The notes under the pieces are model-generated. The model was not told the DNA's origin and made no database searches. It saw nothing but the letters and a program-made list of their open reading frames with translations. DNA of 55,489 bases, from positions 1-55,489 of the IMG/VR virus record IMGVR_UViG_3300040801_000321, one strand, 5' to 3'. The position numbers and the translations under genes were made by a program. Below are positions 371-43,476 of this stretch, one piece after another (position 1 is the stretch's first letter; each line of letters opens with the position of its first letter). Source of the DNA: a virus.

Positions 371-771
371 CTCACGATCCCCTTCAATTGCAGTAAGAAA
401 GCACAGACCGCAGCCAAACGCTTGAGCAGCTCTTTCGCAGAAGCCAGATCAGTCACCTGTGCGTCCACCGCCGCGAACACCTGTGCTGGCGTCTTGTTCA
501 GTAACGTCTGCATGATTGGGTCTGACTCGATTGCTTCCTTGATGCTGAGTTTGTTTTGATAGTACGCGGCCTCATCAGCCCGTATCTGTTCGAGTGGATC
601 CGGGAGTGGCGTATCACGCACAACCAGCTCGCCATCCACCACCTGATACTCGCGCCAGTTCAGCTTCTCAGTTACTTCCAGCAACTCTTCGCCATCAGCA
701 GGCGTGATGTTGCCCCTGAGACCAAAGCCAGTGATCTCGCCCGTCGCAACCACGTATGTAATTTTCATCAT
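367..771 (-). CDS. Hypothetical protein (tail accessory position)
   Basis: 134-aa ORF. Its ATG overlaps the TGA of the giant fibre gene (cgATGATGaaa), which suggests translational coupling. No recognisable motif. Confidence 0.6.
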   Translation of the reverse strand: MMKITYVVATGEITGFGLRGNITPADGEELLEVTEKLNWREYQVVDGELVVRDTPLPDPLEQIRADEAAYYQNKLSIKEAIESDPIMQTLLNKTPAQVFAAVDAQVTDLASAKELLKRLAAVCAFLLQLKGIVR

Positions 772-3700: not shown

Positions 3701-6700
3701 CGGAAGTTGAGACTGTTACTGCGCCGGTGTTGCTATCCCCGTCCTTGTGCGTCGTTGTGCTGACGCTGAGTGTGCCGTCTGCCGCTCGCGTTATCCGTCG
3801 CGCAATACGCGCCAGCAAAGTTGTGCCCTGATAAAAGTAGCAGTCCAGATCAACAGTGGTGCTGGTCGGGTCCCACGTTGTCTGGTCAACCGCACGTACC
3901 CAAGCCAATGGGCCACTAGGCTCGATCCAGCCGACAACTGCGTCTGAACCGTCTGTCCCATCCTCTCCCGGCTCGCCATCAGTAATGTCCACAAGCGTGA
4001 TGGTGTCGAGTGGTGTGCCACCCGTCCCATCCTTCAACGTAATGACGATGCTACTGTTGATGCTGGCTGCGTTGAACGTCTCGTCAAAACCAAGCGCAGT
4101 ATTCGACGGGTTGTAGAGCTGGATTGTCCCGGAGTTGAGCTTGCTTGCTACTCCGTTCTCAACCTTCCACGCTTCAACAGTCAGCGTGCCTGTGCTGTTC
4201 TTGATTGCGGTCCCGGTTGTTGGCTTGATGAAATAAAGCGTTGGTGAGACGCCATCATCACCATCAGTCCCATCAGATCCGGACAGCGACGTGATAACTG
4301 TTTCGCTCGCAGCAACCCCGGAGGAAGTGTGCTCAAAATTAACCGTCGCAACCCGTCCTGTACCGGAAGTTGAAACGGTTACTGCCCCGGTGTTGTAGTC
4401 ACCATCCTTGTGCGCAACGGTGCTGACGGTAAGGATGCCACTCGCATCCCGGGTTACTCTCCGGGCGATACGTGCTAGAACGATTGCGCCTTGGTAGACG
4501 TAGCAATCCAAGTCCACCGTTGTACTGGTCGGGTCCCATGTGCTTTGGTCAATTGCTCGCGTCCATGCGAGTGGTGCGCTGGGCTCGATCCAAAGTACAA
4601 TTGCGTGATCCCCTGGCTCCCCGTCAGTAATGTCCACGAGCGTGATCGTGTCATAGACTGTGCCTGTTGGCCCGTCTTTCAACTCAACGACGACAGAATC
4701 ACTGATGTCGCCTGCGTCGAAGATGCCGGTGTAGCCATTCGATCCAGTAACAAAGCCATTCGCTGCGGTGACGAGCGTAGTGCCAACATACAGCTGGATC
4801 GTCCCGGAAGACAACAGGCTGTCAGAAGTTCCATCAACATGGCGCGCTTCAATCGTCAGCGTGCCTGTGCTGTTCTTGATTGCGGTGCCGTCTGTGGGCT
4901 TGATATAGTACAAGTTGGCGTTGTTGCCGTCATCGCCCGAAGCACCCGACAATGCAGCACTAACCGTCTCACTAACAGACACCAGCTCAACGGTGTGGGT
5001 AAATTTTACGGATGCGCTGCGGCTACTCGTCCCGGAAAGCGTAACGCCAACATTGCCAATATTGTAATCGCCATCCTTGTGCGTCGTGGTGCTGATGCTG
5101 AGGATGCCGTTCGCGTCCCGGGTCACCCTGCGGGCAATGCGCGCAAGCAGCGTGCTGCCCTTGTAGAAGTATGCGTCCAGATCGACGCTGGTGCCTGTCG
5201 GTGCCCATGTGGTCTGATCGACTGCGCGCACCCACGTGATTGGCGCACTGGGCTCGATCCATGCGATGACCGCATCACTGCCGTCCGTCCCGTCAGTAAT
5301 GTCAACGAGTGTGATGGTGTCGAGTGGGTCACCCGTTGACCCGTCTTTCAACTCAACAACAACAGAGTCGCTGATGTCGCCTGCGTCGAATACGCCAGTG
5401 TACCCATCCGAGCCAGTGGCATAACCGTTCGCAACCGTAACCAAAGACGATCCGACATACAACTGGACGCTGCCTGCGGACAGGTGATTGTCTACACCTC
5501 CCTCGATCTTGTGCGCTTCGACGGTGAGCGTGCCGGAACTGTTCTTGATTGCTGTTCCGTCTGTCGGTTTGATATACCAGACAATGGCATCTTCCCCGTC
5601 GATGCCGGACGTTCCGGCGAGCGACTTTGCGATGACGAACTTTTTGGTGACTGTGACTCCGTTGTACGATCCGTTGAGCGTGAACGTCTCTTGTGTGCTA
5701 GTCCAAGCTGAATCAATATAAAGTTCATACTTGCCTTTGATCCCGGTTGTGAGACGGTTAATGCGCAGCCGCAAACCGTTCTGCGTAACCTGATGCCAGT
5801 CGCCGCTGTTCACTCCCCCATCCACCGTAAATGCAGTGCCTTCGGAAACGTCCGTCAGGCCTTTGTAGATTTCAAAGAAACCGACAGCAGATGTAACGTC
5901 CGCACCAGTTCCATCAGCAGCAGTAGCAACAACGTGGACTTCGTTGGTAAGCCACGCATACAGCGCATCCTCGCCATCAACGCCATCTGTGCCGGAACCA
6001 CTCGACACTTTCGTGATCATGATCTCATCATAGAATCCTTCGCGTGTCGCCCGGACCTTGATGAATGCGTTGTTTGTGATTGCTGTGAAGTTGACCCCGG
6101 TAATACTCGCGGTCAGGTAGGGTGAGCTGCCGATTGTGAGTGGGGTAATTGGATTTCCGAGAGCATCCCACACCGTCCACGTAACGTCGCCGCTCAACAA
6201 GTTTGACTGGACATTGAATTCGATGACGCCCGGGCCAATCAGCGAACCATCAGAGCTGTAGGAAAAGATCTGCCCTGTAGTTGCGAGTCGCAGGAACTGT
6301 GCGACGGACGCCAGTGCTGCTCCGGAAGTAGACGCAGACCACGCCCCGCCAGAGCCATTCACATTGATGATGCGTGCCCAGAAATACCGCGTCGTGGTAT
6401 CATCAAAAATGATGGTGTCATAAACGGTGTGGCCAGTAAGATCAGTTGGGCACTGAACACGAACCGTGTCTGTGATCGTCGCGGTATCGTTCGTGGTACT
6501 CCAGCCGAATTCAATCGCACCAGCGTTTGCGATGCCGCCAGTCAGATCTTCCCACGCCTGCGTGAATTCACAACGCACAGCGACATATCCGTAACCTGCG
6601 GTGAGCGCAGGCACGACGCAGTTGACGACTGGCTCTGTAATCCCGAGCACGGTGTGGTAGATTGGCGCGGTGTCGCCGCTGCTAACGCCTGTTCGACTAT

Positions 6701-9431: not shown

Positions 9432-9777
9432 TTCTGCTCTTCCACTTGGGTGAATAGATCCACTCCACACAGGATGTCTTTTCTTCCGGGACGTGTAGCA
9501 TGCGCTGGTTGTCGATACACAAGCCAACATGCGGATTGCGCATCGCAGTTAACAGAACAACATCCCAAGCAGCAGGCTCATCGACCTCGCGCCAGCAGCC
9601 TTGTGACTGCGCGAAGTAAACTGCGTTGTGCGCAGTTGCATCGTCATACTTGTAATTCGGCAGGTATAGCCCGAGCTCACACTCATAGATGTGCTCGATC
9701 AAGCCCCAGCAGTCCCATCCATCCGGGCCACGCCCGTGCTTTTTGAATGGTAGGCCAATGTAACGTTCCAGATTCAT
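9388..9777 (-). CDS. Tail-associated NlpC/P60 cysteine peptidase (lambda gpK-like position)
   Basis: GPDGWDCWGLIEHIY supplies a catalytic Cys context and HVGLCIDNQRMLHV a His. The start is refined to MNLERYIG, with an ATGA overlap onto the upstream stop at 9774. Confidence 0.75.
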   Translation of the reverse strand: MNLERYIGLPFKKHGRGPDGWDCWGLIEHIYECELGLYLPNYKYDDATAHNAVYFAQSQGCWREVDEPAAWDVVLLTAMRNPHVGLCIDNQRMLHVPEEKTSCVEWIYSPKWKSRIESFYRYYPSHSTH

Positions 9778-34320: not shown

Positions 34321-34358
34321 AAAAAAAAATGGGGCCAACCTCGAAAGGCTGGCCCCAA
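34321..34358 (-). terminator. Rho-independent terminator
   Basis: The minus strand reads UGGGGCCAGCC-UUUCGA-GGUUGGCCCCA, an 11-bp stem, followed by U9. It starts 8 nt after the DUF932 stop. Confidence 0.9.
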
Positions 34359-34365
34359 GTCATAT

Positions 34366-35355
34366 TCATGCGACAAGCTGTTCTGCTTCCTCCCAAGCAC
34401 GAGCCTTCACAAGACGATTGCCACCGAACCACGCATTGTTCATGCGCGTTGATGTGGTGCGTCCGGACTCGTGATCAGTGAAGCGTGTGACTGCGTTAAC
34501 CGCACCCCACAGCGTACCGTTCGCAGACTTCAGCTCTGCGCCCGGACCTGCGGAATACAGCGTCAGCATTCGCTTGATCTTCTGGCTGTTGGCGGTGATG
34601 TCGTGCTCTGTGACACCCTCTTCGGTGTCTAGGCCGATGGCCTTGAAGAAAAAGCGCACAGCATCATCTTCGCTGATCTTCTGCTTCGCCATCTTGGCGG
34701 CTTTCTTCTCAAAGGCGCCAAACGAATCACCAATCAGCCCCAGCTCTTCCTTGATCAGCGTAGCATCAAACTCGCGTGTGTGCGGAACCCGGATGCGTGA
34801 GCTTGGACGCTCAGCAACGGAAAACTCCAGCGTGTTCTGGCACACTACCCGGACAGATGTGAACTGCCCGATTGTTGCGAGTGACTTGTCGCAGGAAGTT
34901 GCCAACAGCAAGTAAGGCTGGATCAGATCCTGACCCTGAATGCGCGCTTCATACTTCGCACGCGCCAGTGCCCAGACCTTCCGGCCACCATCGAGTGAGC
35001 CCGCAGTCTCAATGCGGAAGTCGCCCGATGCCCCAACAAGCTCCCGGTAAAATTCCAGAATCTCGTTGGGCTGGACAACGTTGTAACCATCCGACACAAC
35101 GCTCAAAGGCATCTGCGTGTCGTCGCGGTAAATGACCATGCGGTCACTGTACTCAACAATGTCCATTTTCTTCGCTGTGGGCTTGCTGATGTCGAAGAGT
35201 ACTGGCGCCTGCACGAGATTGAAATTCAACCCCGCAGCAATGCGCCACTCTTCGATGGTTGAGTCTGGGTCAATTGACTGGCCCAGACCATGCCACGGAA
35301 CGTCGCCAACATATGCCATGTTAGCACGCTCATTAGAAAAGTCGATCATGTGCAT
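34366..35355 (-). CDS. DUF932 family protein (phage/plasmid-like protein)
   Basis: The N-terminus ...MAYVGDVPWHGLGQSI... and the 329-aa size are typical of DUF932. RBS is GAGG. Confidence 0.7.
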   Translation of the reverse strand: MHMIDFSNERANMAYVGDVPWHGLGQSIDPDSTIEEWRIAAGLNFNLVQAPVLFDISKPTAKKMDIVEYSDRMVIYRDDTQMPLSVVSDGYNVVQPNEILEFYRELVGASGDFRIETAGSLDGGRKVWALARAKYEARIQGQDLIQPYLLLATSCDKSLATIGQFTSVRVVCQNTLEFSVAERPSSRIRVPHTREFDATLIKEELGLIGDSFGAFEKKAAKMAKQKISEDDAVRFFFKAIGLDTEEGVTEHDITANSQKIKRMLTLYSAGPGAELKSANGTLWGAVNAVTRFTDHESGRTTSTRMNNAWFGGNRLVKARAWEEAEQLVA

Positions 35356-35376
35356 AATTCACCTCACTCTTATCGT

Positions 35377-35448
35377 TGGGATGCCTCATCGGGCTGTGGG
35401 CTCCCACCCCGCAGCGACATGGCCACCCGAAGGCAGCCATGTTTCGGC
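35377..35448 (-). ncRNA. Hammerhead ribozyme-like element, type II topology, core variant (HHR-12)
   Basis: Minus-strand RNA: GCC-GAAAC-AUGGCUGCC-UUCG-GGUGGCCAU-GUC|GCUGCGGG-GUGGGAG-CCCACAGC-CCGAUGA-GGC-A-UCCCA.
- Stem III is 11 bp with a UUCG loop.
- Stem II is 3 bp (GGC/GCC).
- Loop I UGGGA can pair with the UCCCA tail.
- Core position 4 is C, not U.
- The predicted scissile C is complementary to plus-strand 35416. Confidence 0.6.
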
Positions 35449-35453
35449 TCGTC

Positions 35454-35657
35454 CTATCCTCGCAGACCACAATGCATGTACGCACCCACGAGTATCCTTG
35501 CTTCGTGGTACGTCACGCCGAACTCATCCTCAAGATACGGGCCAGCACCAAACATGTTGGTTTCGCCCGAGTCCCGAAGATTGTCCATGAAGTCGGCAAC
35601 CTCATCAATGCTGAGCCCGACTTCGTCACACACGATCCTCGCTTTCTCATAGTCCAT
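35454..35657 (-). CDS. Hypothetical small protein
   Basis: 67 aa (MDYEKARIVCDEV...). It starts 1 nt after the upstream stop. Confidence 0.55.
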   Translation of the reverse strand: MDYEKARIVCDEVGLSIDEVADFMDNLRDSGETNMFGAGPYLEDEFGVTYHEARILVGAYMHCGLRG

Positions 35658-35658
35658 G

Positions 35659-35877
35659 TTACACCTCCCGCTCTTCGACCACCCAGCCGAAGGATTCCCA
35701 ACGGCCATGGGTTGGTGCGAATTTGTTTATCGTCGTGAGCATGACCCCACGCTTCTGCAGCCCGAAGATTTCGGTTGCGTCTTGCGTGTAGGTGGGCCAG
35801 CACTGATCGTACCGCAGCATGTCTACTGGGAACGGACCTTTGCCTGTGGCGATGAACGTTTTCACTTCACACCTCAT
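35659..35877 (-). CDS. Hypothetical small protein (FIATGKGPFPVDMLRYDQCWP motif)
   Basis: The internal ATG at 35877 or GTG at 35868 overlaps the upstream stop. The motif recurs in phage and plasmid small proteins as far as I recall. Confidence 0.5.
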   Translation of the reverse strand: MRCEVKTFIATGKGPFPVDMLRYDQCWPTYTQDATEIFGLQKRGVMLTTINKFAPTHGRWESFGWVVEEREV

Positions 35878-36124
35878 TGCTGTAAACAGCGAACGGCAAC
35901 AACAGCGCAGCAGCACGTACCATTTCGCCATGGTTGCTGCCGAGCGAGTAGAAGATTGCGTGTGCGCGGTTGCTGTAATCGTCTAGCCTACCAGCATCCG
36001 CGCACAGCTCAACAACTTCGTCGCTGCTGTAGTCGCGTGGGGGAAGATCTGGAGCGATGTCGTTCCAGATCCGGTCAATGGCTCGCGCCAAATAATCAAG
36101 ATCGTCCATAGCAGGTGCGGTCAT
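35867..36124 (-). CDS. Hypothetical small acidic protein
   Basis: The start is refined to MTAPAMDDLDYL. GGGAG lies 6 nt upstream, and the start is 4 nt after the previous stop. Confidence 0.55.
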   Translation of the reverse strand: MTAPAMDDLDYLARAIDRIWNDIAPDLPPRDYSSDEVVELCADAGRLDDYSNRAHAIFYSLGSNHGEMVRAAALLLPFAVYSNEV

Positions 36125-36128
36125 GACG

Positions 36129-36395
36129 TTACTCCCAGTCATCAGGGTACATTCCACCAGCAACCGGATCGTCTGGCCCGGGCAGGTGGCTCAGGCTCAC
36201 TTGCGGATCTGTGTATGCGTTGGACGGCTGCGCATGCGGATACTTGGCCTGTGCTAGTTCAAGAGTCTCAAAGCTGTCAAGCCAGTTCCTGCGCGGCTGC
36301 CCAGCCAGCACGCTGTGTGGCGGGTACTCGTCCCAACCGAACACAACCCACGAGCCATTGCGCATACTCGCAGTGTACATTTCATATTGCTTCAT
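36129..36395 (-). CDS. Hypothetical small protein
   Basis: 88 aa (MKQYEMYTASMRNG...), preceded by GGAGAUAGAUAUG. The listed 189-aa ORF is an artefactual extension through HHR-1. Confidence 0.65.
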   Translation of the reverse strand: MKQYEMYTASMRNGSWVVFGWDEYPPHSVLAGQPRRNWLDSFETLELAQAKYPHAQPSNAYTDPQVSLSHLPGPDDPVAGGMYPDDWE

Positions 36396-36409
36396 ATCTA
36401 TCTCCAATC

Positions 36410-36481
36410 GGCTTGTCTCATCAGTGTACCAGTAGCCAACTGATACAGACACTGCCGAGTTGCCCCGGCAGCGTTTCGACG
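36410..36481 (-). ncRNA. Hammerhead ribozyme, type II topology (HHR-1)
   Basis: Minus-strand RNA: GUC-GAAAC-GCUGCCG-GGGCAACU-CGGCAGU-GUC|UGUAUCAG-UUGGCUA-CUGGUACA-CUGAUGA-GAC-A-AGCC. Loop I GGCU pairs with the AGCC tail. Coordinates are +/-1 because, in my reading, the printed sequence and the ORF track differ by one base between about 36361 and 36720. Confidence 0.8.
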
Positions 36482-36874
36482 TTACGAAAGTTGTTGCAGC
36501 GTCATGCGCTCTGCTTTGTCCTTGAGCCGCGTGACTCGCTCGTTGACGAACTTGGTCCGGGACTTCGTGGCGACGTTCGTGTGCAGCCCGATGTGACTGC
36601 GAAGATCGTCCGCAGTCGGCCACCACACCTTGTCGTTCTCTCCGTCCCAAACATGCCAGTAAGATTCGCCCAGCACCTTCATAAAGTTCAGGCGCCACGC
36701 CATCTCAATGACGTCTTTTTCGTCTTTGAGCCCGTTCATGTCAATGAGCAGGCAGGCCCAAATCAGAGCATTGGTCGATTCCTTGAGCATACCCTTGTGG
36801 GTTGTCTCGTCCCAATCCTCAAAGCAGGTTTTCTGCCAGTCGTTGATCTCACTCAGTGACCAATCTAATGACAT
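36482..36874 (-). CDS. Hypothetical protein (Trp-rich)
   Basis: 130 aa. The stop abuts HHR-1 and the gene is preceded by a stem-loop rather than a ribozyme. Confidence 0.65.
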   Translation of the reverse strand: MSLDWSLSEINDWQKTCFEDWDETTHKGMLKESTNALIWACLLIDMNGLKDEKDVIEMAWRLNFMKVLGESYWHVWDGENDKVWWPTADDLRSHIGLHTNVATKSRTKFVNERVTRLKDKAERMTLQQLS

Positions 36875-36895
36875 CGTAGTGCTCCCATCAAAGTT

Positions 36896-36921
36896 GGTGC
36901 CCGGGACGATTCCCGGGCACC
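36896..36921 (-). other. Intercistronic 11-bp stem-loop (no U-tract)
   Basis: The minus strand reads GGUGCCCGGGA-AUCG-UCCCGGGCACC, between 36934..37521 and 36482..36874. This is the only junction in the array without a hammerhead. Confidence 0.6.
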
Positions 36922-36933
36922 GTGTACGCAGAC

Positions 36934-37521
36934 CTAACTCTCAATCACCAGATAGGCTGCCTTGGGGTCGATCAGCTTCTGCAGGACGCCCATAGCAGAA
37001 CCGCGAGAGCTGATGCCCTCAAGTGTCTGCAGCTCCGCGATAAAGTCCTCAACCGGCATCTTGTTGCCGCGTTGCTGCTTCAGCAGCTCCACAGCAGACC
37101 ACCGCAGTGAGCCCTCACGCATCTTCATCAGTGGCTCCGGGTTAACCCGGACGACACCAACAACCGCATTGCGCGTGCGCCCACGAGACTTTTTCACATC
37201 GCCCTTTTCAGGTGGCGTCTTGCCCTTCGGCTTGCTGCCCTTCGGCGCGTCAACCTCCGGCCACTCAGCACCGTCCAGCGCAGCAGCAGTGCGCGTCGCA
37301 GCGTCTGCTGCGGTTGCGAACTTTTTGATGTCTGCTGTCCCGGGGATGCTGTTGTAGATCGAGACGAGTGCCTTGCCCTTAAATGCGGTGGCCACTTGTT
37401 CAGCGGTGCCGACATAGAAGTCAAAGCTGACGCTCTCAGCGTATGCCTCAGCGTCCGCAATCGTCGGGAACTTCCCAACAACCACGCTCTTGTCCACGTT
37501 CACTAAGTATGATGTGCTCAT
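36934..37521 (-). CDS. Hypothetical protein with a basic Lys/Pro-rich linker
   Basis: 195 aa with an ATG start about 24 nt after HHR-2. The middle segment is PKGSKPKGKTPPEKGDVKKSRGR. Confidence 0.65.
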   Translation of the reverse strand: MSTSYLVNVDKSVVVGKFPTIADAEAYAESVSFDFYVGTAEQVATAFKGKALVSIYNSIPGTADIKKFATAADAATRTAAALDGAEWPEVDAPKGSKPKGKTPPEKGDVKKSRGRTRNAVVGVVRVNPEPLMKMREGSLRWSAVELLKQQRGNKMPVEDFIAELQTLEGISSRGSAMGVLQKLIDPKAAYLVIES

Positions 37522-37544
37522 CTATATTCTCCTGTCGTTATGTT

Positions 37545-37613
37545 GTGTCTGTCTCATCAGTGCCCGGATGACACGTTCCGGGCAGACACGCTCCGGGTGG
37601 AGCGTGTTTCGAC
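37545..37613 (-). ncRNA. Hammerhead ribozyme, type II topology (HHR-2)
   Basis: Minus-strand RNA: GUC-GAAAC-ACGCUCC-ACCC-GGAGCGU-GUC|UGCCCGGA-ACGUGUCA-UCCGGGCA-CUGAUGA-GAC-A-GACAC. Here loop I GUGUC pairs with a different tail, GACAC, which is a compensated pseudoknot. The scissile C is opposite 37585. Confidence 0.8.
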
Positions 37614-37614
37614 G

Positions 37615-37956
37615 TTATGAAAGTTCACGCAGCAGCTCTGCGCGCAGCTCAGCATTCGGATCGAATGCGCTGATGGTGTGCTTGTCCTTGTCTTCGTTCA
37701 AGGCTTCCAGCATACCGTCATACGCTTCCATGAAGTGCCTGCGGAAGTTCTTGGCGAACTCATCAGGCATCTTCCGGGCCAGCTCCGGACATCCCTCAGC
37801 GGTCATGTCCAGCGCCAGAAGCGCGCACGCAGAGCTCATCAGCTTCTGCGCAGCCTCAGCGACCTCCAGCGCATTGCGCGGAGAATCGACAGCGAGCATC
37901 AACAATGCTTTGGAAGTGGCATTGATGAGTTCCTTGGCTTCAATCTTTTCTTTCAT
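37615..37956 (-). CDS. Hypothetical small helical protein
   Basis: 113 aa (MKEKIEAKELINAT...), preceded by GGGAGAUGAUCAUG. The stop is 1 nt from HHR-2. Confidence 0.6.
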   Translation of the reverse strand: MKEKIEAKELINATSKALLMLAVDSPRNALEVAEAAQKLMSSACALLALDMTAEGCPELARKMPDEFAKNFRRHFMEAYDGMLEALNEDKDKHTISAFDPNAELRAELLRELS

Positions 37957-37971
37957 GATCATCTCCCAATC

Positions 37972-38035
37972 GGCTTGTCTCATCAGCGCCCGGGTAGCCA
38001 ACCCGGAACGGACGCGCCCGCAGGCGCGTTTCGAC
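37972..38035 (-). ncRNA. Hammerhead ribozyme, type II topology (HHR-3)
   Basis: Minus-strand RNA: GUC-GAAAC-GCGCC-UGCG-GGCGC-GUC|CGUUCCGGG-UUGGCUA-CCCGGGCG-CUGAUGA-GAC-A-AGCC. The scissile C is opposite 38011. Confidence 0.85.
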
Positions 38036-38036
38036 G

Positions 38037-38426
38037 TTATGACTCTTGCGGCCTCATCTGCAGCTTCAGCGTTCCGAGCAGGCCACGATGCTTCATCCAT
38101 TCGTGCACCTCTTTCTCGCCACCATGCGACGCCATGGGCACGTAGTTGTAGATGACGTGGGCGTAACCGCGAACCGCTGCGGCATTCGACTCGTCAGCGT
38201 GACGGAACGTCTGCAGCAGATTGTTCTCGAACACATTGAGCAGGAAGCCACCCATGGGGCGACCATCCATCACATAGGCCAACAGCTCATTCCGCATGTA
38301 GCCCGGAATATCCTGCTCACGCATGCCGGCAGCAACCTTCGCATAGACGGCTTCTGCGACTTCGCGCATGCTCCCATTCAGGTCGGTGTAAGCAGCGCCA
38401 TATTCCCGTTCAAGTTCAACGTTCAT
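38037..38426 (-). CDS. Hypothetical protein
   Basis: 129 aa (MNVELEREYGAAYTDLNG...), preceded by GGAGAUUGAUAUG. The listed 205-aa ORF runs through HHR-4. Confidence 0.65.
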   Translation of the reverse strand: MNVELEREYGAAYTDLNGSMREVAEAVYAKVAAGMREQDIPGYMRNELLAYVMDGRPMGGFLLNVFENNLLQTFRHADESNAAAVRGYAHVIYNYVPMASHGGEKEVHEWMKHRGLLGTLKLQMRPQES

Positions 38427-38440
38427 ATCAATCTCCAATC

Positions 38441-38504
38441 GGTTTGTCTCATCAGCGCCCGGGTAACCACCCCGGAACGGACGCGCCCGCAGGCGCGTTT
38501 CGAC
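38441..38504 (-). ncRNA. Hammerhead ribozyme, type II topology (HHR-4)
   Basis: Minus-strand RNA: GUC-GAAAC-GCGCC-UGCG-GGCGC-GUC|CGUUCCGGG-GUGGUUA-CCCGGGCG-CUGAUGA-GAC-A-AACC. Loop GGUU pairs with tail AACC, which covaries with the GGCU/AGCC pairing in other copies. The scissile C is opposite 38480. Confidence 0.85.
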
Positions 38505-38505
38505 A

Positions 38506-38706
38506 TCAAAAGAAATGTGTGCGGGATTCGCCGCAACGAGTGCATTGAATCTCTTCACCGCCATCTTCCGGATACACCACGCACACTTCCCAACGGTGGC
38601 CGCGAATCCGGCAGACCAACCGCTCAAACTTGTAAGCGATGAAGTCTGCCACACGCAACCGCATTGTTGGGTATGGCGTGTGCAGGAAGTCTTGCCACGT
38701 TAGCAT
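38506..38706 (-). CDS. Hypothetical small protein (C-terminal CxxC)
   Basis: 66 aa with a 7-nt overlap onto the upstream gene. The stop is 1 nt from HHR-4. Confidence 0.5.
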   Translation of the reverse strand: MLTWQDFLHTPYPTMRLRVADFIAYKFERLVCRIRGHRWEVCVVYPEDGGEEIQCTRCGESRTHFF

Positions 38707-38900
38707 GGGGCACCTCGCTCGATCTCAATGTGAAGTATTTCGTGCTGCTCCAGAAGATCGACAACCGCGCATTGAAGTGTGCGGCTATCTTCCAGAGCAT
38801 CAGCAGCAGCCCGCAGCACTTCCGGAAAACTCCGGAACGTTGCTGCTTGCTTGTTGCCGTTAACACGCCAGATGCGGAGCTCAAACGTATCTTCGTTCAT
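38700..38900 (-). CDS. Hypothetical small protein
   Basis: 66 aa with an ATGA overlap onto the stop of 38897..39184. Confidence 0.5.
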   Translation of the reverse strand: MNEDTFELRIWRVNGNKQAATFRSFPEVLRAAADALEDSRTLQCAVVDLLEQHEILHIEIERGAPC

Positions 38901-39184
38901 GCTCTACTCTTCCCGTCGCCCAGCATCACGCGTGTGGCGCGGTTGATCTCGCGCTGTTGCGGAGAGCAAGCCCGTTCCAGACGTTCTTGCTGATAGCGGA
39001 TGTAAGCATCCACATCAGGCTGGACTTCCTCGATCAGCTTCCTGAGCTGATTAAGTTCTGAGTTGAGCTCACGAGCGTATCCGAGTGCGTGCGACTCCAG
39101 CCCGCCACCGCAGCGTTCTGCTTCGATGTACTTGGACTCGATCCGCGACATGGCATTCTTCAGCCAGTGAATTTGTGTCTTCAT
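38897..39184 (-). CDS. Hypothetical coiled-coil protein
   Basis: 95 aa (MKTQIHWLKNAMSRIESKY...), preceded by GGAGACGAAGAUG. Confidence 0.6.
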   Translation of the reverse strand: MKTQIHWLKNAMSRIESKYIEAERCGGGLESHALGYARELNSELNQLRKLIEEVQPDVDAYIRYQQERLERACSPQQREINRATRVMLGDGKSRA

Positions 39185-39198
39185 CTTCGTCTCCAATC

Positions 39199-39263
39199 GG
39201 CTTGTCTCATCAGCGCCCGGGTAGCCAACCCGGAACGGACGGCAGCACTGCTGCCGTTTCGAC
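39199..39263 (-). ncRNA. Hammerhead ribozyme, type II topology (HHR-5)
   Basis: Minus-strand RNA: GUC-GAAAC-GGCAG-CAGUG-CUGCC-GUC|CGUUCCGGG-UUGGCUA-CCCGGGCG-CUGAUGA-GAC-A-AGCC. The stem III sequence differs from HHR-3 and HHR-4 but stays paired. The scissile C is opposite 39238. Confidence 0.85.
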
Positions 39264-39264
39264 T

Positions 39265-39462
39265 CTAGAATTCAACTGACCTGCCCGTCTCTTCCCAGCA
39301 CGTCAGGTCAAACTTGAAGAACCTGCCCTGCCCGCAAAGCAGCGTTGCCATTTCGCGTGCCTTTGTGGTGGCTTCCTCGCGATTCACGTGACCGAACTCA
39401 ACGCGGCAGTAGTGCTTGACGCGGGTGTCGGTGATCTCTGCGATGTTCAGTGAGTATCTCAT
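39265..39462 (-). CDS. Hypothetical small protein
   Basis: 65 aa (MRYSLNIAEITDTRVKHY...), preceded by GGAGAUGAUAAUG. Confidence 0.55.
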   Translation of the reverse strand: MRYSLNIAEITDTRVKHYCRVEFGHVNREEATTKAREMATLLCGQGRFFKFDLTCWEETGRSVEF

Positions 39463-39476
39463 TATCATCTCCAATC

Positions 39477-39539
39477 GGTTTGTCTCATCAGTGATGAAGT
39501 AACCAGCTTCACCAGACGCGCCCGCAGGCGCGTTTCGAC
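39477..39539 (-). ncRNA. Hammerhead ribozyme, type II topology (HHR-6)
   Basis: Minus-strand RNA: GUC-GAAAC-GCGCC-UGCG-GGCGC-GUC|UGGUGAAG-CUGGUUA-CUUCAUCA-CUGAUGA-GAC-A-AACC. The scissile C is opposite 39515. Confidence 0.85.
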
Positions 39540-39540
39540 T

Positions 39541-39822
39541 TCACGAGTCATCCTCTTCAGCATCAGCATTTGCTGCCTTGATCTGATCGTCGTGCTCGCC
39601 TTTGTCGAGGATTCGATCAACGATGTCCTCTTCGGTGCCGTTGCACTCTTCGTTCACCAGCAAAGCAATCTGTGCGCACATCGAGACCAGCTCAATGGCT
39701 GCGCGCTCTTCGTCGCGGGACAGCTTGCCTTTGCCTTCGACAAAAAGAGTCTCAAGCGCCAGCTGGCACTCGCCAAGATCAGTCAGCGTATTCTGGAACC
39801 GGCAGTAGCTCATATTGCTCAT
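39541..39822 (-). CDS. Hypothetical acidic protein (MSNMSYCRFQNT... N-terminus)
   Basis: 93 aa, preceded by GGAGAUGAUAAUG, with an acidic C-terminus. Confidence 0.6.
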   Translation of the reverse strand: MSNMSYCRFQNTLTDLGECQLALETLFVEGKGKLSRDEERAAIELVSMCAQIALLVNEECNGTEEDIVDRILDKGEHDDQIKAANADAEEDDS

Positions 39823-39836
39823 TATCATCTCCAATC

Positions 39837-39902
39837 GGTTTGTCTCATCAGCGCCCGGGTAACCAGCCCGGAACGGACGGCAGCACGTGCTGCCGTTTCG
39901 AC
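39837..39902 (-). ncRNA. Hammerhead ribozyme, type II topology (HHR-7)
   Basis: Minus-strand RNA: GUC-GAAAC-GGCAGC-ACGU-GCUGCC-GUC|CGUUCCGGG-CUGGUUA-CCCGGGCG-CUGAUGA-GAC-A-AACC. The stop codon of the upstream gene overlaps the first ribozyme nucleotide. The scissile C is opposite 39876. Confidence 0.85.
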
Positions 39903-40189
39903 TATGACCGCACCTTGAATGCGGTGAGTGGATATGCCCAGCCCGAAGTCGGGCTGCCACGCTCCGGGACAGCATACACTTCAAACTCAGCAGGCGCGTA
40001 ACTCTTCAGCATCGAGTTGCGACTGCCGGGATTGTATGTGCGTCCCGGAACCTTGATCACGACCACATCATTGGAGTCTTGGATGAGCTTGGTGCCGTTT
40101 GGCGTTTCCCATCCCCTGCGAATGACGTTATCGGGATCTGACCAGTCCATGTAGACTCTGGATGTGCTTGTGACTTTGTTAACGTACAT
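39902..40189 (-). CDS. Hypothetical small protein
   Basis: 95 aa (MYVNKVTSTSRVYMDW...), preceded by GGAGAUGAACAUG. Confidence 0.6.
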   Translation of the reverse strand: MYVNKVTSTSRVYMDWSDPDNVIRRGWETPNGTKLIQDSNDVVVIKVPGRTYNPGSRNSMLKSYAPAEFEVYAVPERGSPTSGWAYPLTAFKVRS

Positions 40190-40203
40190 GTTCATCTCCA
40201 ATC

Positions 40204-40267
40204 GGCTTGTCTCATCAGCGCCCGGGTAGCCATCCCGGAACGGACGCCACCGCAGTGGCGTTTCGAC
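40204..40267 (-). ncRNA. Hammerhead ribozyme, type II topology (HHR-8)
   Basis: Minus-strand RNA: GUC-GAAAC-GCCAC-UGCG-GUGGC-GUC|CGUUCCGGG-AUGGCUA-CCCGGGCG-CUGAUGA-GAC-A-AGCC. The scissile C is opposite 40243. Confidence 0.85.
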
Positions 40268-40268
40268 A

Positions 40269-40520
40269 TCAGCTCGTCACAACCTCGCGCCAGTCGGTCC
40301 CGGCCAAGATCTGCTCAGCTTGCTTGCGGCTGATCTGGCCATAAAGCGAGTGCTGGAACGTCACTCGCGTCTTGTCGTTGGAAGTGAAGTGCTTCACCTC
40401 AACCGACACGCCATGCTCGCCTTGGACCACCGTGGAATATCCCGGCTTACCTCTCATGTACAGGTAGCACCTGTCTTCCTGTGCGCGAGCCTTATTGATA
40501 AGTTGTAAGGTTCTGTTCAT
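40269..40520 (-). CDS. Hypothetical small protein
   Basis: 83 aa (MNRTLQLINKARAQEDR...), preceded by GGAGAUUGAUAUG. Confidence 0.6.
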   Translation of the reverse strand: MNRTLQLINKARAQEDRCYLYMRGKPGYSTVVQGEHGVSVEVKHFTSNDKTRVTFQHSLYGQISRKQAEQILAGTDWREVVTS

Positions 40521-40534
40521 ATCAATCTCCAATC

Positions 40535-40600
40535 GGTTTGTCTCATCAGTGGCGAAGTAACCAGCTTCACCAGACGCGCCCTCCATGGGCGCGTTTCGAC
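40535..40600 (-). ncRNA. Hammerhead ribozyme, type II topology (HHR-9)
   Basis: Minus-strand RNA: GUC-GAAAC-GCGCCC-AUGGA-GGGCGC-GUC|UGGUGAAG-CUGGUUA-CUUCGCCA-CUGAUGA-GAC-A-AACC. The scissile C is opposite 40573. Confidence 0.85.
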
Positions 40601-40601
40601 G

Positions 40602-40916
40602 TTAGTGGATCGAAACAAGGTCAGCGGCTTCCATCGTCCGGAGCAGCCACTTGGCGCGGCCAACCGGATTCGCTGCGCCATTCCTCTCAAGCGCAACCGC
40701 GATACGCTTCAGTGCGTAGGCAGTCTTGACCCTGTTCTTGGCATCTGCGTGCTGGCGAAGAGTCGTGATGGCGATGTCGCGCTCAGAACCTTCGAACACG
40801 TAGCGGTCCTCAAGTGCCTTCTCATGAAGCACCACAGAACCATCATTCCAATTGCGGCGGTTGTAGGTCTTGCCGTAGTTGGTGCCATGTGCCGTCTTGT
40901 TAGTACGTGCGTTCAT
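40602..40916 (-). CDS. Hypothetical protein
   Basis: 104 aa (MNARTNKTAHGTNYGK...), preceded by GGAGAACUGAGAUG. Confidence 0.65.
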   Translation of the reverse strand: MNARTNKTAHGTNYGKTYNRRNWNDGSVVLHEKALEDRYVFEGSERDIAITTLRQHADAKNRVKTAYALKRIAVALERNGAANPVGRAKWLLRTMEAADLVSIH

Positions 40917-40938
40917 CTCAGTTCTCCATTTAGTTATC

Positions 40939-41001
40939 GGCTTGTCTCATCAGTGTAACGGGAGCCACCCGTTACAGACGCGCCCGCAGGCGCGTTTCGA
41001 C
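40939..41001 (-). ncRNA. Hammerhead ribozyme, type II topology (HHR-10)
   Basis: Minus-strand RNA: GUC-GAAAC-GCGCC-UGCG-GGCGC-GUC|UGUAACGGG-UGGCU-CCCGUUACA-CUGAUGA-GAC-A-AGCC. The scissile C is opposite 40977. Confidence 0.85.
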
Positions 41002-41002
41002 A

Positions 41003-41203
41003 TCAGCTGACCTTGTGGCTGCGAAGTGCCTTGTATGCGGCATCGCGAGCTGCGACCAGCGCAGCTTCCAAACGTTCCACATCTTCCATGCTCCAATCTT
41101 CATCGGAACAGTTCAGCTCATCCGTCATTCTGCTATCAAAAAGTTCCTCGAACATCTCATCAAGCAGACCAGAAGCAGCAATCTTGATTTGGCGCTTGTT
41201 CAT
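41003..41203 (-). CDS. Hypothetical small acidic protein
   Basis: 66 aa (MNKRQIKIAASGLLDEMFEE...), preceded by GGAGAUUAUCAUG. It is the first cistron of the array. Confidence 0.55.
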   Translation of the reverse strand: MNKRQIKIAASGLLDEMFEELFDSRMTDELNCSDEDWSMEDVERLEAALVAARDAAYKALRSHKVS

Positions 41204-41217
41204 GATAATCTCCAATC

Positions 41218-41297
41218 GGCTTGTCTCATCGGTGCCGTGGTAGCCGACCACGACAGACACCCAACGTCCCTGTGGGACGGCTTACGGGTGTTTCGAC
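41218..41297 (-). ncRNA. Hammerhead ribozyme-like element, type II topology, core variant (HHR-11)
   Basis: Minus-strand RNA: GUC-GAAAC-ACCC-[GUAAGCC GUCCC-ACA-GGGAC GUU]-GGGU-GUC|UGUCGUGG-UCGGCUA-CCACGGCA-CCGAUGA-GAC-A-AGCC. Core position 4 is C instead of U. Stem III carries an insert that is also found as a repeat at 41489..41512. Confidence 0.6.
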
Positions 41298-41515
41298 ATT
41301 TGGAGTAGATGAATATGACTTATCAGCAGGCAGCGTCTATCATGGCGCATCCCTGTGGGATGACTTATGCCGTTCTGTCGCGACATGGGGCTGTCGCGAA
41401 CTCTGAACATCTGACGGCTTACGTTGTGGAGTTGACCTGCTGTTGTTGGATACCGTTCTGCGGTCTTGCCAAATTTGGAGCTGGTGTTAACGTCCCTGTG
41501 GGACGGCTTACAACA
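41263..41515. repeat. Iteron-like degenerate direct repeats (CCCTGTGGGA-YG-RCTTAY)
   Basis: - Full copies: caacgtccctgtgggacggcttac at 41263..41286 and aacgtccctgtgggacggcttac at 41489..41512.
- Variant: catccctgtgggatgacttatgcc at about 41348..41372.
- Partial copies: acggcttac at 41414..41422 and tgacttatcag at about 41316.
- Also present: tgtcgcga twice, at 41376 and 41391. Confidence 0.6.
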
Positions 41516-41519
41516 GGCA

Positions 41520-41750
41520 CAGCTTCGCCTTTGGCTTCTCAGATTGGGCAACCGCAGGTTCTTGCTCGGTGCCTCCTTGAGCCCCTAGCTTTTCGGGAGT
41601 CCTTCCGGTTAGCGGTCTTGGCTTTCGCCTCACGAGTGGTCCCGGTTGGGCCGAACTCTCCAGTTTCCAGTGCCGCCTCCCGGCGTGATCCCCTTGGGGG
41701 AAACTGGTCGCCACCTCTAGGTCGGTGACTTGGCGGTTTTCTCCCCGCCT
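41520..41750. other. GC-rich, densely self-complementary noncoding segment (candidate structured RNA or origin element)
   Basis: No convincing ORF. Many local helices can be drawn, for example CCAGUUUCC...GGAAACUGG (9 bp) enclosing GCCG-CCUCC-CGGC, as well as GGCGG-UUUUCUCC-CCGCC and GAGU-GGUCCCGGUUGGGCC-GAACUC. The strand is unknown. Confidence 0.3.
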
Positions 41751-41853
41751 GCAGATAGTGTAGGTGATTTGTGAACTAAAGTAAAGGATAGTTTTGCTTT
41801 GATTTTCAACACCTTACAAGCCATTGTTCACTGTTTAGGCCAAAAATCTGTGG

Positions 41854-41884
41854 TTTTTCGGGGTTTTCGGGCACTTTCGGGCAG
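41854..41884. repeat. Three phased TTTCGGG repeats (about 10-11 bp period)
   Basis: The sequence is tttttcgggg ttttcgggcac tttcgggcag, which has helical phasing suggestive of intrinsically bent DNA. It lies between ATTGTTCA (about 41823) and TGAACAAT (about 41899). Confidence 0.5.
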
Positions 41885-41934
41885 AAAGCGTGGCACCTGA
41901 ACAATCCATTTCACAAGGTAATTCCCAGCATATC

Positions 41935-43476
41935 CTAAGATCCAGTGCGTGCAACCCCTATATTTGCAGCATAAAACTGTGCCATGTTGGCTAGGGGATC
42001 GTAAAAGTACTGCCACTGGGGTGTGACTACGTGGAGACGTTCCAGCGCCCGGGTCACAGCGACGTAGAACACGCGATGCTCGTCGTCAGACAATCCATAC
42101 TTCAACGCCAGATACGTCGCACGCGTCACATCAGTCATCACGATCACGTTCTGGCACTCGCCACCTTTGGCGCCATGGATTGTGCTCAGCTCGATGCGTG
42201 GCTTCAATCCTTCCAGCTTCCCGTAACGCTGGTGGACGCGCAGCAGGTACTGTGTCTGCTTCGGCTGGATGCCCCGGAACACGTGGTATGGATTCTCTGG
42301 TAGTTGGATCTGTAAACGCTTCAGGTTGTACTCGCCACTGCGTGTGACGATAAACGGTGGACGCAATCTGCTGAGGTGGAGGAATTGTCGAATCTTCTCT
42401 CCACGCAACGTCTCACCGCGCAGCAACCGGAAGTAAGCATCCACCGCCTGCGCCTCTGCGAGCTGATAGGCTGGACGGTGCCGGAAGATATACGGCAAGC
42501 CCCAAGTCCGCAAGCGACCAATAAAAGACTTCACCATGGGCGTGGTAAAGTTCCGGGACAGCACAAGCCACTCTTGATCTTCGTCATCCCACAACGGCAG
42601 AGACTCGTGACAGTTGTAGAAAATCACATCACCTATCTCCGGGCGAGGATTCCAGTGCTTGTAACGTCTGTTCTCGATCTTGTTGGCGATTGTGAGTGCG
42701 ACTTCCTGTGGCCGAATCGGAACGCGATATGACTGGCCTAGCACTTCGACGTTACCGGGAAGCTGGATGAGACGATTCACATCAGCACCGTTCCATCGGT
42801 AGATTGCTTGGTCATCGTCGCCGGCAACATAGATGCGCGATGCGCTGCGGAAAGAGTTAGCAATCATCTTCCACTGCTGTACCGTCAGATCCTGCGCTTC
42901 GTCAATAATCGCAACATCAACGTCCAGCTCAATATCGCGCCGGTTATATTCAATGATCATGTCGGTGTAGTCGAATATGCCTTGGTCATCTTTGTACTTG
43001 GCATACTCTGCTGCGAAACGCTTCAGACGTATGACGTTGGTCTGAAGGTTCTGCTCCCGGAGGATCGTGCTCATCGGCACTTCCCGGATGCGTGACTGTG
43101 TGTAGATGAACTCTAGCAGATCGTCGCTGGGCTCCTGGGTCCACCGCGACTCCTGCCGGAAGTTGCCTGTGAGACGGAAGCCAGTGCGCTCCTGGAACTC
43201 TTCACGATGGACTCGCGTAAACAACATGTCACGCGAAATGCCGAGTGCCTTGAACGCTGTACTGTGTAGCGTCCGGAAGTATGGCATGTCGATCCGGCGA
43301 ACATTCAGCTGTGACCGCACCCGGGCCACACCCTCATCAACTGCCTTGTTTGTGAACGATACGAACGCGATGCGCTCAGGTGATATGCCCAGCTCCAGCT
43401 CGCGCTGGATGATGTTGAGTAGCCTTGTGGTCTTGCCCGTCCCGGGTGGCCCAAGGATGATATGAATCTCCGGCAC
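41935..43476 (-). CDS. UvrD/Rep-like superfamily 1 DNA helicase
   Basis: Motifs present: Walker A GPPGTGKTT, IIDEAQD, VAGDDDQAIYRWNGA, STIHGAKGGE and YVAVTRALERL. Confidence 0.9.
   Translation of the reverse strand: MPEIHIILGPPGTGKTTRLLNIIQRELELGISPERIAFVSFTNKAVDEGVARVRSQLNVRRIDMPYFRTLHSTAFKALGISRDMLFTRVHREEFQERTGFRLTGNFRQESRWTQEPSDDLLEFIYTQSRIREVPMSTILREQNLQTNVIRLKRFAAEYAKYKDDQGIFDYTDMIIEYNRRDIELDVDVAIIDEAQDLTVQQWKMIANSFRSASRIYVAGDDDQAIYRWNGADVNRLIQLPGNVEVLGQSYRVPIRPQEVALTIANKIENRRYKHWNPRPEIGDVIFYNCHESLPLWDDEDQEWLVLSRNFTTPMVKSFIGRLRTWGLPYIFRHRPAYQLAEAQAVDAYFRLLRGETLRGEKIRQFLHLSRLRPPFIVTRSGEYNLKRLQIQLPENPYHVFRGIQPKQTQYLLRVHQRYGKLEGLKPRIELSTIHGAKGGECQNVIVMTDVTRATYLALKYGLSDDEHRVFYVAVTRALERLHVVTPQWQYFYDPLANMAQFYAANIGVARTGS

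Follow-up and report, generated by a model that had tools for sequence, protein, structure and literature searches.

An array of 12 predicted type II hammerhead ribozymes between the small genes of a tailed phage

What does a phage gain from setting a self-cleaving ribozyme before one small gene after another, and is the folding of such a ribozyme tied to the start of translation on the gene that follows it? These questions are raised by a 55,489-nucleotide (nt) stretch of viral DNA, positions 1 to 55,489 of the IMG/VR virus record IMGVR_UViG_3300040801_000321 (hereafter the window), in which an earlier note had picked out the element at 37972-38035 as one of 12 hammerhead ribozymes whose loop I pairs with their own 3′ tail, a few nucleotides from the Shine-Dalgarno (SD) sequence of the next gene. 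As set out in the following, the 12 hammerheads are probably intercistronic processing elements that would cut one long operon transcript into messenger RNAs (mRNAs) with structured ends. The locus is a new and unusually large example of an already known arrangement, different from it in size and not in kind.

The 12 hammerheads of the array

All 12 type II hammerhead ribozyme copies (Rfam family RF02276) in the window are encoded on the minus strand, from 41299 to 35377 (Table 1; copies are referred to by their start position). The element at 37972-38035 is one of them and scores 39.3 bits at 37968-38036, with the RF02276 gathering score being 37 bits. In the Rfam scan, eight copies reach this score (37.4-49.6 bits), three fall under it (36.2, 32.7 and 27.9 bits) and one, at 36482-36414, goes unreported even at E ≤ 10 with permissive filters, having been dropped by the filters of cmscan. 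This last copy parses perfectly as a canonical hammerhead and scores about 75 bits (75.3) with a covariance model (CM) that was built from the window copies, leaving the pseudoknot out of the model. Because a canonical copy can be missed in this way, Rfam-based counts of such arrays may be underestimates.

The order of parts is the same in every copy: N-(U/C/A)GUC, GAAA, the stem III hairpin, GUC (the cleavage site), the stem I hairpin, CUGAUGA, GACA and the tail. GAAA and GUC are found in all 12 copies and CUGAUGA in ten, the remaining two (41299 and 35450) having CCGAUGA, i.e. a U4C change. Apart from U4C in these two, the core required of the class (C3-U4-G5-A6-N7-G8-A9; G12-A13-A14; H17 after stem III) is present, as is the three-way junction in which loops close stems I and III and stem II is open, with both RNA ends. 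At the base of stem II, the C-G pair (G10.1-C11.1) occurs 12 times out of 12, and so does the A-U pair (A15.1-U16.1) at the base of stem III together with its C-G neighbour. When the 12 copies were aligned with MAFFT, 96.9% of stem I was paired, with double changes at all eight of its pairs; over all stems, 95.6% of the alignment cells were paired vs 77.5% in column shuffles, and double changes are seen at 15 of 21 pairs. Judged by its sequence, each element is a canonical type II hammerhead.

The description of the fold given in the earlier note holds. Stem II has 3-4 base pairs (bp), GAC(A)/(U)GUC, and loop I is complementary to the tail in every copy, 5 nt of the loop pairing with the 5 nt directly after stem II. 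The pairings that had been listed are all correct, namely GGCU:AGCC in six copies, GGUU:AACC in four, and GUGUC:GACAC and UGGGA:UCCCA in one each.

For comparison, IMG/VR was scanned with a pattern that left loop and tail unconstrained, which yielded 120 viral loci (L001-L120), and from these loci a folding-based filter picked an alignment-free test set of 129 non-redundant type II hammerheads. With 12 copies in 5.9 kilobases (kb), the array is the largest among the loci compared. Arrays of eight to nine type II hammerheads in ≤15 kb occur at L025, L026 and L070; with L027 and L003 added, the arrays seen within this length hold six to nine.

Table 1. Features of the hammerhead array in the window. 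All hammerheads are listed with their number and, in brackets, their start; the focal copy is the one at 37972-38035. HHR, hammerhead ribozyme; PK, pseudoknot (5′ strand:3′ strand); ORF, open reading frame; aa, amino acids; own CM, the covariance model built from the window copies.
Feature	Position	Strand	Evidence
Focal hammerhead HHR-3 (38037), including 5-nt pseudoknot tail	37971..38037	-	RF02276 39.3 bits; own CM 87.1 bits; parse; pair counts
Focal copy: stop codon UAA of upstream ORF	38039-38037	-	
Focal copy: stem II 5′ strand	38036-38033	-	
Focal copy: G12A13A14	38032-38030	-	
Focal copy: stem III hairpin	38029-38012	-	
Focal copy: C17; predicted cleavage between 38011 and 38010	38011	-	
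Focal copy: stem I hairpin	38010-37987	-	
Focal copy: CUGAUGA	37986-37980	-	
Focal copy: stem II 3′ strand GACA	37979-37976	-	
Focal PK, 5′ strand UGGCU, within loop I UUGGCUA (38001-37995)	37996..38000	-	
Focal PK, 3′ strand AGCCG, directly after stem II	37971..37975	-	
Focal PK, pairs U37996-A37975, C37997-G37974, G37998-C37973, G37999-C37972, U38000-G37971 (wobble)			
Shine-Dalgarno GGGAG (37967-37963), spacer and AUG 37956-37954 of the 113/115-aa ORF 37615-37956	37954..37967	-	
HHR-11 (41299), first of array; U4C core CCGAUGA; 31-nt stem III; PK CGGCU:AGCCG	41217..41299	-	Rfam 27.9 bits; own CM 70.3 bits
HHR-10 (41003); PK UGGCU:AGCCG; SD farther downstream (~11 nt) than in the common cassette	40938..41003	-	
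HHR-9 (40602); PK UGGUU:AACCG	40534..40602	-	
HHR-8 (40269); PK UGGCU:AGCCG	40203..40269	-	
HHR-7 (39904); PK UGGUU:AACCG; upstream stop UAG overlapping stem II	39836..39904	-	
HHR-6 (39541); PK UGGUU:AACCG	39476..39541	-	
HHR-5 (39265); PK UGGCU:AGCCG	39198..39265	-	Rfam 36.2 bits
HHR-4 (38506); PK UGGUU:AACCG; four differences from focal copy, two being the covarying pair	38440..38506	-	
HHR-2 (37615); PK GUGUC:GACAC	37545..37615	-	Rfam 49.6 bits
HHR-1 (36482); PK UGGCU:AGCCG; unreported by Rfam scan	36409..36482	-	own CM 75.3 bits
HHR-12 (35450), last of array; U4C core; PK UGGGA:UCCCA; before DUF932 gene 34366-35355	35377..35450	-	Rfam 32.7 bits
Terminator-like hairpin, 12 bp, 8 G-C, T8 tail, after last hammerhead-led gene	34330..34357	-	

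Packing between stop codon and Shine-Dalgarno sequence

The hammerheads of the array leave hardly a nucleotide unused between the genes that they separate. Ten of the 12 stem II strands (4 nt) either follow immediately on the stop codon of the preceding ORF or share 2 nt with it. The spacer is filled from end to end in ten copies, by the stop codon, the 4 nt of stem II, the core, the hairpin of stem III, the GUC, the hairpin of stem I, CUGAUGA, GACA, the tail of the pseudoknot, a linker of 3-4 nt, GGAG, 6 nt and AUG, in this order. Because the stop codon abuts stem II on one side and the SD follows the tail closely on the other, the spacer of ~80 nt is fully accounted for by ribozyme, linker and ribosome-binding site (RBS). 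The distance of 4 nt between pseudoknot and SD that the earlier note had given stands for most of the array: in nine copies, GGAG starts 3-4 nt past the tail strand, with the AUG 6 nt later. It does not stand for the copies at 41003, 37615 and 35450, whose SD follows only after 11-12 nt. The window contains GAUUGGAGA eight times as an exact match, each time directly after a hammerhead tail, and copy 38037 carries GAUUGGGAGA in its place.

Some side observations concern the same junctions. In four cassettes, two in-frame AUGs follow the SD (GGAG-AUG-AnN-AUG; 37954-37962, 39460-39468, 39820-39828 and 40187-40195, minus strand), the extra one in the focal cassette being at 37962-37960. The first of the two directly abuts the SD and is therefore probably unused, and automatic gene callers may choose the wrong start at such cassettes. 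At HHR-11, with its long stem III, the only ORF of some size upstream is a candidate (41282-41551, starting with TTG) that would run as far as a UAA within this stem, unlike at the other copies, whose stop codon abuts stem II. Outside the window, post-tail SD boxes are conserved in an array-specific manner, AAUGGAGA being the box of L025 and CGAAAGGAUCAA that of L024.

The fit recurs across the class. Of the 129 external hammerheads, 75% (controls, 2.8%) have an open frame upstream whose end lies no more than 3 nt to either side of the stem II strand, and 73% have an SD-like motif plus the start codon of an ORF ≤30 nt downstream (median 24 nt) vs 10% of random positions in the same loci. No statement of this stop-ribozyme-SD fit of phage hammerheads was found in the papers covered by full-text searches, a weak negative given that most subscription journals lie outside that coverage. 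The closeness of pseudoknot and SD is thus a general packing pattern of the class and not a demonstrated case of regulation; it looks like a compaction in which the SD stays free, next to a compact fold but not in it.

In the earlier note, this closeness had been taken to mean that ribozyme folding and translation initiation could be mutually coupled. With a 30S subunit bound, the pseudoknot would fail to form or would melt, so that cleavage is blocked, and the folded ribozyme would in turn hinder 30S loading; by extension, a ribosome terminating at the abutting stop codon would unfold stems II and III, with cleavage being gated by ribosome traffic on both sides. Much of the geometry would suit such a model. 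Not only do 3-4 nt separate tail strand and GGAG in nine copies, but the class-wide median from the end of the pseudoknot to the start codon is 19 nt, which is within the region contacted by the 30S subunit. With the stop codon abutting stem II (75% vs 3% of controls), the 5′ part of the ribozyme must come under any ribosome that terminates there. For the idea, if for no more than that, there is a precedent in a preprint (10.1101/2024.05.16.594327), where ribozymes of the 5′ untranslated region (UTR) are reported to serve translation initiation in eukaryotic RNA viruses.

The SD itself, however, gives this model no foothold. It lies outside every ribozyme helix, without a single overlap (gap ≥0) in the 12 copies of the window and in the 87 external elements with a clear pseudoknot that were used to measure the gap. 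Among these 87, the gap between pseudoknot and SD is variable (mostly 0-20 nt, median 8, interquartile range 5-13.5) and uncorrelated with pseudoknot length (rho -0.12, p 0.28), the linkers are A-rich (47% A) and unstructured, and even within the array under study three copies have their SD 11-12 nt away. The probability that the SD is unpaired is alike in the precursor and in the 3′ cleavage product, e.g. 0.72 and 0.72 for the focal copy, as calculated for nested folds with the pseudoknot left out. Since the SD is outside the helices, the gap variable and the predicted accessibility unaltered by cleavage, a switch between ribozyme and translation is unsupported, and the tight packing is explained equally well by the economy of phage genomes. 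Mutual coupling is accordingly unlikely.

An alternative fold that sequesters the SD was considered separately and rejected, as partition-function folding of precursor and product (ViennaRNA, nested structures only) showed no anti-SD partner.

Given the distances, it is plausible on physical grounds, if unlikely, that a 30S subunit affects the pseudoknot sterically or that a ribosome, on terminating, so affects stems II and III. That the hammerheads have been fitted between stop codon and SD to the nucleotide because their cleavage is gated by ribosome traffic, with the terminating ribosome unfolding stem II, core and stem III and a 30S subunit on the SD competing with the tertiary contact, is a conjecture to which we give rather poor prospects. 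If it were true, a junction would be cut only when translation of its neighbours lapses, or in a pioneer window before ribosomes arrive, and the translation status of single small genes would be converted into segmentation of the mRNA and differential stability.

Selection on the RNA and recombination of the cassettes

The contact between loop I and tail, on which fast cleavage would depend, has left a clear trace in the alignment of the 12 copies. Covariation was judged by pair counting with column shuffles, slid-partner controls and a permutation test, and the count supports the contact that the earlier note had proposed to check by covariation. The pseudoknot comprises five pairs in one fixed register, with all 60 of its 60 cells paired vs 82.0 ± 2.4% in column shuffles, none of 500 shuffles reaching 60/60, and sliding the 3′ partner by 1-3 columns lowers pairing to 7-53%. 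Double changes are found at four of the five pairs. The pair that comes fifth in the register is a U-G wobble in nine copies and Watson-Crick (C-G, G-C or U-A) in three. In the ten copies of the UGGYU type, the C/U state of the loop is perfectly linked to the G/A state of the tail, as had been claimed (six C-G, four U-A, none mixed), without any C-A combination or U-G intermediate; the chance of so perfect an association, calculated by hand, is 1/C(10,4) = 0.005. Two near-identical pairs of copies, which sit on different stem III backgrounds, each have one member with C-G and one with U-A at this place: between 38506 and 38037 there are four differences in ~70 positions, between 39904 and 39265 five, and in both comparisons two of the differences are the pseudoknot pair.

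Two considerations temper these figures. The copies are paralogues in one locus, so the shuffle statistics overstate their independence. Moreover, it weighs against a reading of the covariation as selection that a gene conversion tract over loop and tail could yield the same within-window pattern, the intervening sequence being identical in the relevant copies. Because gene conversion could mimic covariation in this way, hammerheads outside the window were compared.

In the alignment-free test set, at least 4 contiguous Watson-Crick bp between an element's own loop I and its own tail are found in 77.5% of the 129 hammerheads vs 17.3% after permutation of loops and tails among the elements (highest value of 200 permutations, 25.6%); for at least 5 bp, the figures are 47% vs 5%. 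The register is that of the window: among the 100 elements that reach 4 bp, 65 have a tail strand beginning 4 nt past CUGANGA, and these 100 external pseudoknots have 55 distinct tail strands. Likewise, the pseudoknot-free CM collected 196 hammerheads in the window plus 99 loci, and on the resulting alignment the five pseudoknot column pairs are 86.2% paired vs 70.0 ± 1.0 in shuffles, with 111 double-change cells vs 34.5 ± 9.3. On this covariation, the loop I-3′ tail contact is a real pseudoknot and general in the class.

None of this is new in kind. Natural type II hammerheads were introduced together with this very pseudoknot by Perreault et al. (2011, PMC3088659), who described at least 4 bp at the loop I-tail pseudoknot for most type II motifs. 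Truncation of the pseudoknot lowered kobs by ~20-fold to >100-fold, compensatory mutation restored activity, and the pseudoknot was found to form even without the other ribozyme strand (PMC3088659). The earlier note's view that this is the tertiary interaction by which type II hammerheads achieve fast cleavage is thus as described and mutant-tested there. The covarying pseudoknot is a rediscovery that adds nothing beyond the 2011 publication, and structurally the window copies do not differ from the RF02276 class, two of the 12 with U4C notwithstanding: they share its core, its topology with capped stems I and III and a short open stem II, its pseudoknot of 4-6 bp directly after stem II, and its phage or prophage setting, and a common consensus of the UGG...CCA type is visible in the Rfam model.

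The U4C change (CCGAUGA) is confined to the first and the last hammerhead (41229-41223 and 35389-35383, minus strand) and occurs in none of the 138 external type II hammerheads aligned. It is a documented natural variant of viroids, where it lowers activity in vitro and is functional nonetheless in a viroid. Both U4C copies of the window keep perfect stems and pseudoknots and hence look maintained; they are possibly slower-cleaving copies that mark the boundaries of the array.

The array has also changed by recombination. An exact look-up of the protein of a 129-aa ORF had no match on record, and a homologue search returned one protein, which led to the contig L132 (JGI sample 3300040796, 2.8 kb, 1-2774). 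This contig is 99.8-100% identical to the window between 38994 and 35799 (minus strand) and is without exactly one cassette (~38023-37621), namely the body of hammerhead 38037 and the 113-aa ORF. The crossover falls within 15 nt, TCATAACGTCGAAAC, that are common to the 5′ ends of hammerheads 38037 and 37615, and the deletion leaves a chimeric but intact ribozyme. As a further observation, the ten UGGYU-type copies between 41299 and 36409 combine variants of stem III and stem I in a mosaic fashion: the stem III GCGCCUGCGGGCGC occurs with three stem I sequences, and the stem I CGUUCCGGG...CCCGGGCG with three of stem III. Such combinations point to copies that have recombined, or undergone gene conversion, with one another at conserved segments of the core.

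Could the repeats then matter mainly as DNA, the hammerhead-plus-SD cassettes of ~80 bp being recombination modules that shuffle accessory genes, with RNA cleavage secondary? Besides the cassette missing from L132, with its crossover inside the shared 15 nt, and the mosaic combinations of stems, one may point to the genes between the copies, which are ORFans without homologues, and to the finding that the identities of the genes flanked by hammerheads are not constant (Perreault et al., PMC3088659). Yet selection clearly acts on the RNA, as the catalytic core is invariant and compensatory changes preserve all three stems and the pseudoknot through a divergence of sequence that reduces the DNA homology among the copies. 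Any repeat recombines occasionally, and one indel does not show a selected function. Given compensatory evolution in every helix, which implies selection on the RNA, recombination is regarded as a side effect that is compatible with processing and no alternative to it; as the main role of the repeats it is very unlikely. Weaker still, and effectively refuted, is the view that the complementarity of loop and tail is chance or the hitch-hiking of recently duplicated repeats without a structural role, for although ten of the 12 copies belong to one loop/tail family (UGGYU/ARCCG), are paralogous within one locus such that shuffle tests overstate their independence, and could have passed on loop and tail together in a conversion tract, the window holds four unrelated pseudoknot sequences in the same register, with zero mismatches and no U-G intermediate at the covarying pair, the contact recurs with 55 different sequences in independent viral contigs, and direct mutational proof has been published (PMC3088659).

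Probable intercistronic processing in a phage transcription unit

The window is a segment of a tailed-phage genome with nearly all genes on the minus strand, among them those for the tape measure, portal, large terminase and head morphogenesis proteins, a Pol III alpha-type DNA polymerase, a primase, two helicases and ThyX. In an ORF of 2920 aa (768-9530, minus strand), the first ~1600 residues match PHROGs of the central tail fibre J-like type, the other ~1300 being without assignment. Downstream of a helicase gene (41935-43476), the array is set among ~17 small ORFs, the blocks between ribozymes comprising one to three genes; all copies and flanking ORFs are co-directional on the minus strand. 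The last gene (34366-35355), preceded by the last hammerhead, matches DUF932, and directly after it stands a strong hairpin of 12 bp at 34357-34330 that resembles an intrinsic terminator, likely the place where the transcription unit of the array ends. Inside the array, there is no excess of promoter-like sites, which together with this hairpin speaks for a single transcription unit.

No close relative of this phage turned up in any of the collections searched. Apart from DUF932 for the last gene and one PHROG of unknown function, the ORFs of the array matched no family in PHROGs and Pfam, and a homologue search with the 113-aa cassette ORF returned none. Megablast of 35000-42000 against phage, plasmid and E. 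coli collections gave no match, and the phage that comes closest by its DNA polymerase has only 44% identity. Searched for exactly, the cassette string CTGATGAGACAARCCGATTGGAG had zero matches in IMG/VR and zero in metagenome contigs; the shorter CTGATGAGACAARCCGAT had 11 scattered single matches in GTDB genomes, with no arrays and no relatives of this phage among them. A helicase-based search for related phages returned 80 loci of ≤35% identity, none with a hammerhead array.

With this layout, the processing of the operon can be pictured as follows. One long minus-strand transcript would run from the helicase/primase region through the ~17 small ORFs and the DUF932 gene to the terminator, and co-transcriptional self-cleavage at 12 sites would divide it into mRNAs of one to three genes. 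The short stem II (3-4 bp) would be reinforced by the Watson-Crick pseudoknot of 4-5 bp, which would hold stems I and II parallel and allow fast cleavage at cellular Mg2+ concentrations. As the cleavage site of a type II hammerhead is between stems III and I, the stem III hairpin, with a 2′,3′-cyclic phosphate, would form the end of the upstream mRNA; and as both strands of the pseudoknot are on the 3′ product, the pseudoknot would stay with the downstream mRNA, which would begin with a 5′-OH, the stem I hairpin and the pseudoknot and offer a free, standardised SD 3-4 nt further on. Each ribozyme would thus be a natural counterpart, by analogy, of the ribozyme insulators of synthetic biology, uncoupling the stability and the RBS context of each small gene from its neighbours. 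We infer that these 12 copies cleave and that cleavage affects stability and translation; stabilisation by 5′-OH/hairpin and 2′,3′-cyclic phosphate/hairpin ends would be expected from what is generally known of bacterial mRNA decay.

Several points speak against this picture. The end stabilisation that it invokes would be an extension of that general knowledge of mRNA decay to natural phage hammerheads. Two copies, the first and the last, carry U4C, a change that lowers activity in vitro. Finally, not every gene of a block has a ribozyme before it.

Published systems agree with intercistronic processing in several respects. In prophages, several hammerheads flank single genes or short gene blocks, clustered hammerheads cleave both in vitro and in E. 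coli, and long phage transcripts were proposed to be processed to mRNAs the length of an operon or a gene, with no constancy in which genes are flanked (PMC3088659). A later review likewise notes that hammerhead clusters flank small non-conserved ORFs and lists the role of the hundreds of bacterial and phage hammerheads as an open question (de la Pena 2017, PMC6155905), and three type II hammerheads have been found active in vivo in Desulfovibrio vulgaris (PMC8782182). The prophage clusters of Agrobacterium tumefaciens (the ardA triple), Azorhizobium caulinodans and Clostridium scindens resemble the present array in having several ribozymes per polycistronic unit, in standing on either side of single genes or of short blocks of small ORFs that are not conserved, and in having been proposed to process mRNA (PMC3088659 Fig. 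3, S1-S3; PMC6155905); what differs here is the number of copies, 12 in 5.9 kb, in an undescribed phage, and that the stop-ribozyme-SD fit has been quantified. A precedent for a ribozyme-defined mRNA 5′ end is HHphage of the haloarchaeal viruses HF1 and HF2, a hammerhead located 13 nt upstream of the start codon in an early polycistronic transcript, with a mapped transcript 5′ end ≤3 nt from the cleavage site (PMC3088659). It is, however, another structural variant, present as a single copy in an archaeal virus, and no bacterial-type SD arrangement has been described for it. The hammerheads in the 5′ UTRs of chrysovirids and fusarivirids also lie by a coding start and have been proposed to act in translation (bioRxiv 10.1101/2024.05.16.594327), but these are type I hammerheads without the usual tertiary contacts, in eukaryotic RNA viruses whose initiation does not involve an SD.

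The original design of RiboJ-type insulators reportedly goes back to Lou et al. in 2012. Like the copies of the array, RiboJ is a hammerhead directly upstream of an RBS, and its cleavage takes away the sequence context upstream and leaves a 5′ hairpin before a free SD. It differs in being engineered, from a satellite-RNA hammerhead with loop-loop contacts and an added hairpin and not from a pseudoknotted type II ribozyme, and in being used after promoters and not between cistrons. Placed upstream of an RBS, RiboJ raised transcript abundance ~2-fold and protein 2-10-fold (Clifton et al. 2018, PMC6206723).

What gives the present findings their value is mainly the class-wide statistics of stop codon, ribozyme and SD, together with the use of the locus for experiments. 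With 12 ribozymes in one operon and four pseudoknot sequences, two natural ‘compensatory double mutant’ pairs on near-identical backgrounds, two U4C variants and a variant that has lost one cassette, it is a rich natural test bed. The class-wide figures for stop codons (75%) and for SD plus start codon (73%) sharpen the processing/insulator hypothesis into a directly testable one, and the packing of stop codon, ribozyme and SD suggests compact natural parts for the design of synthetic operons.

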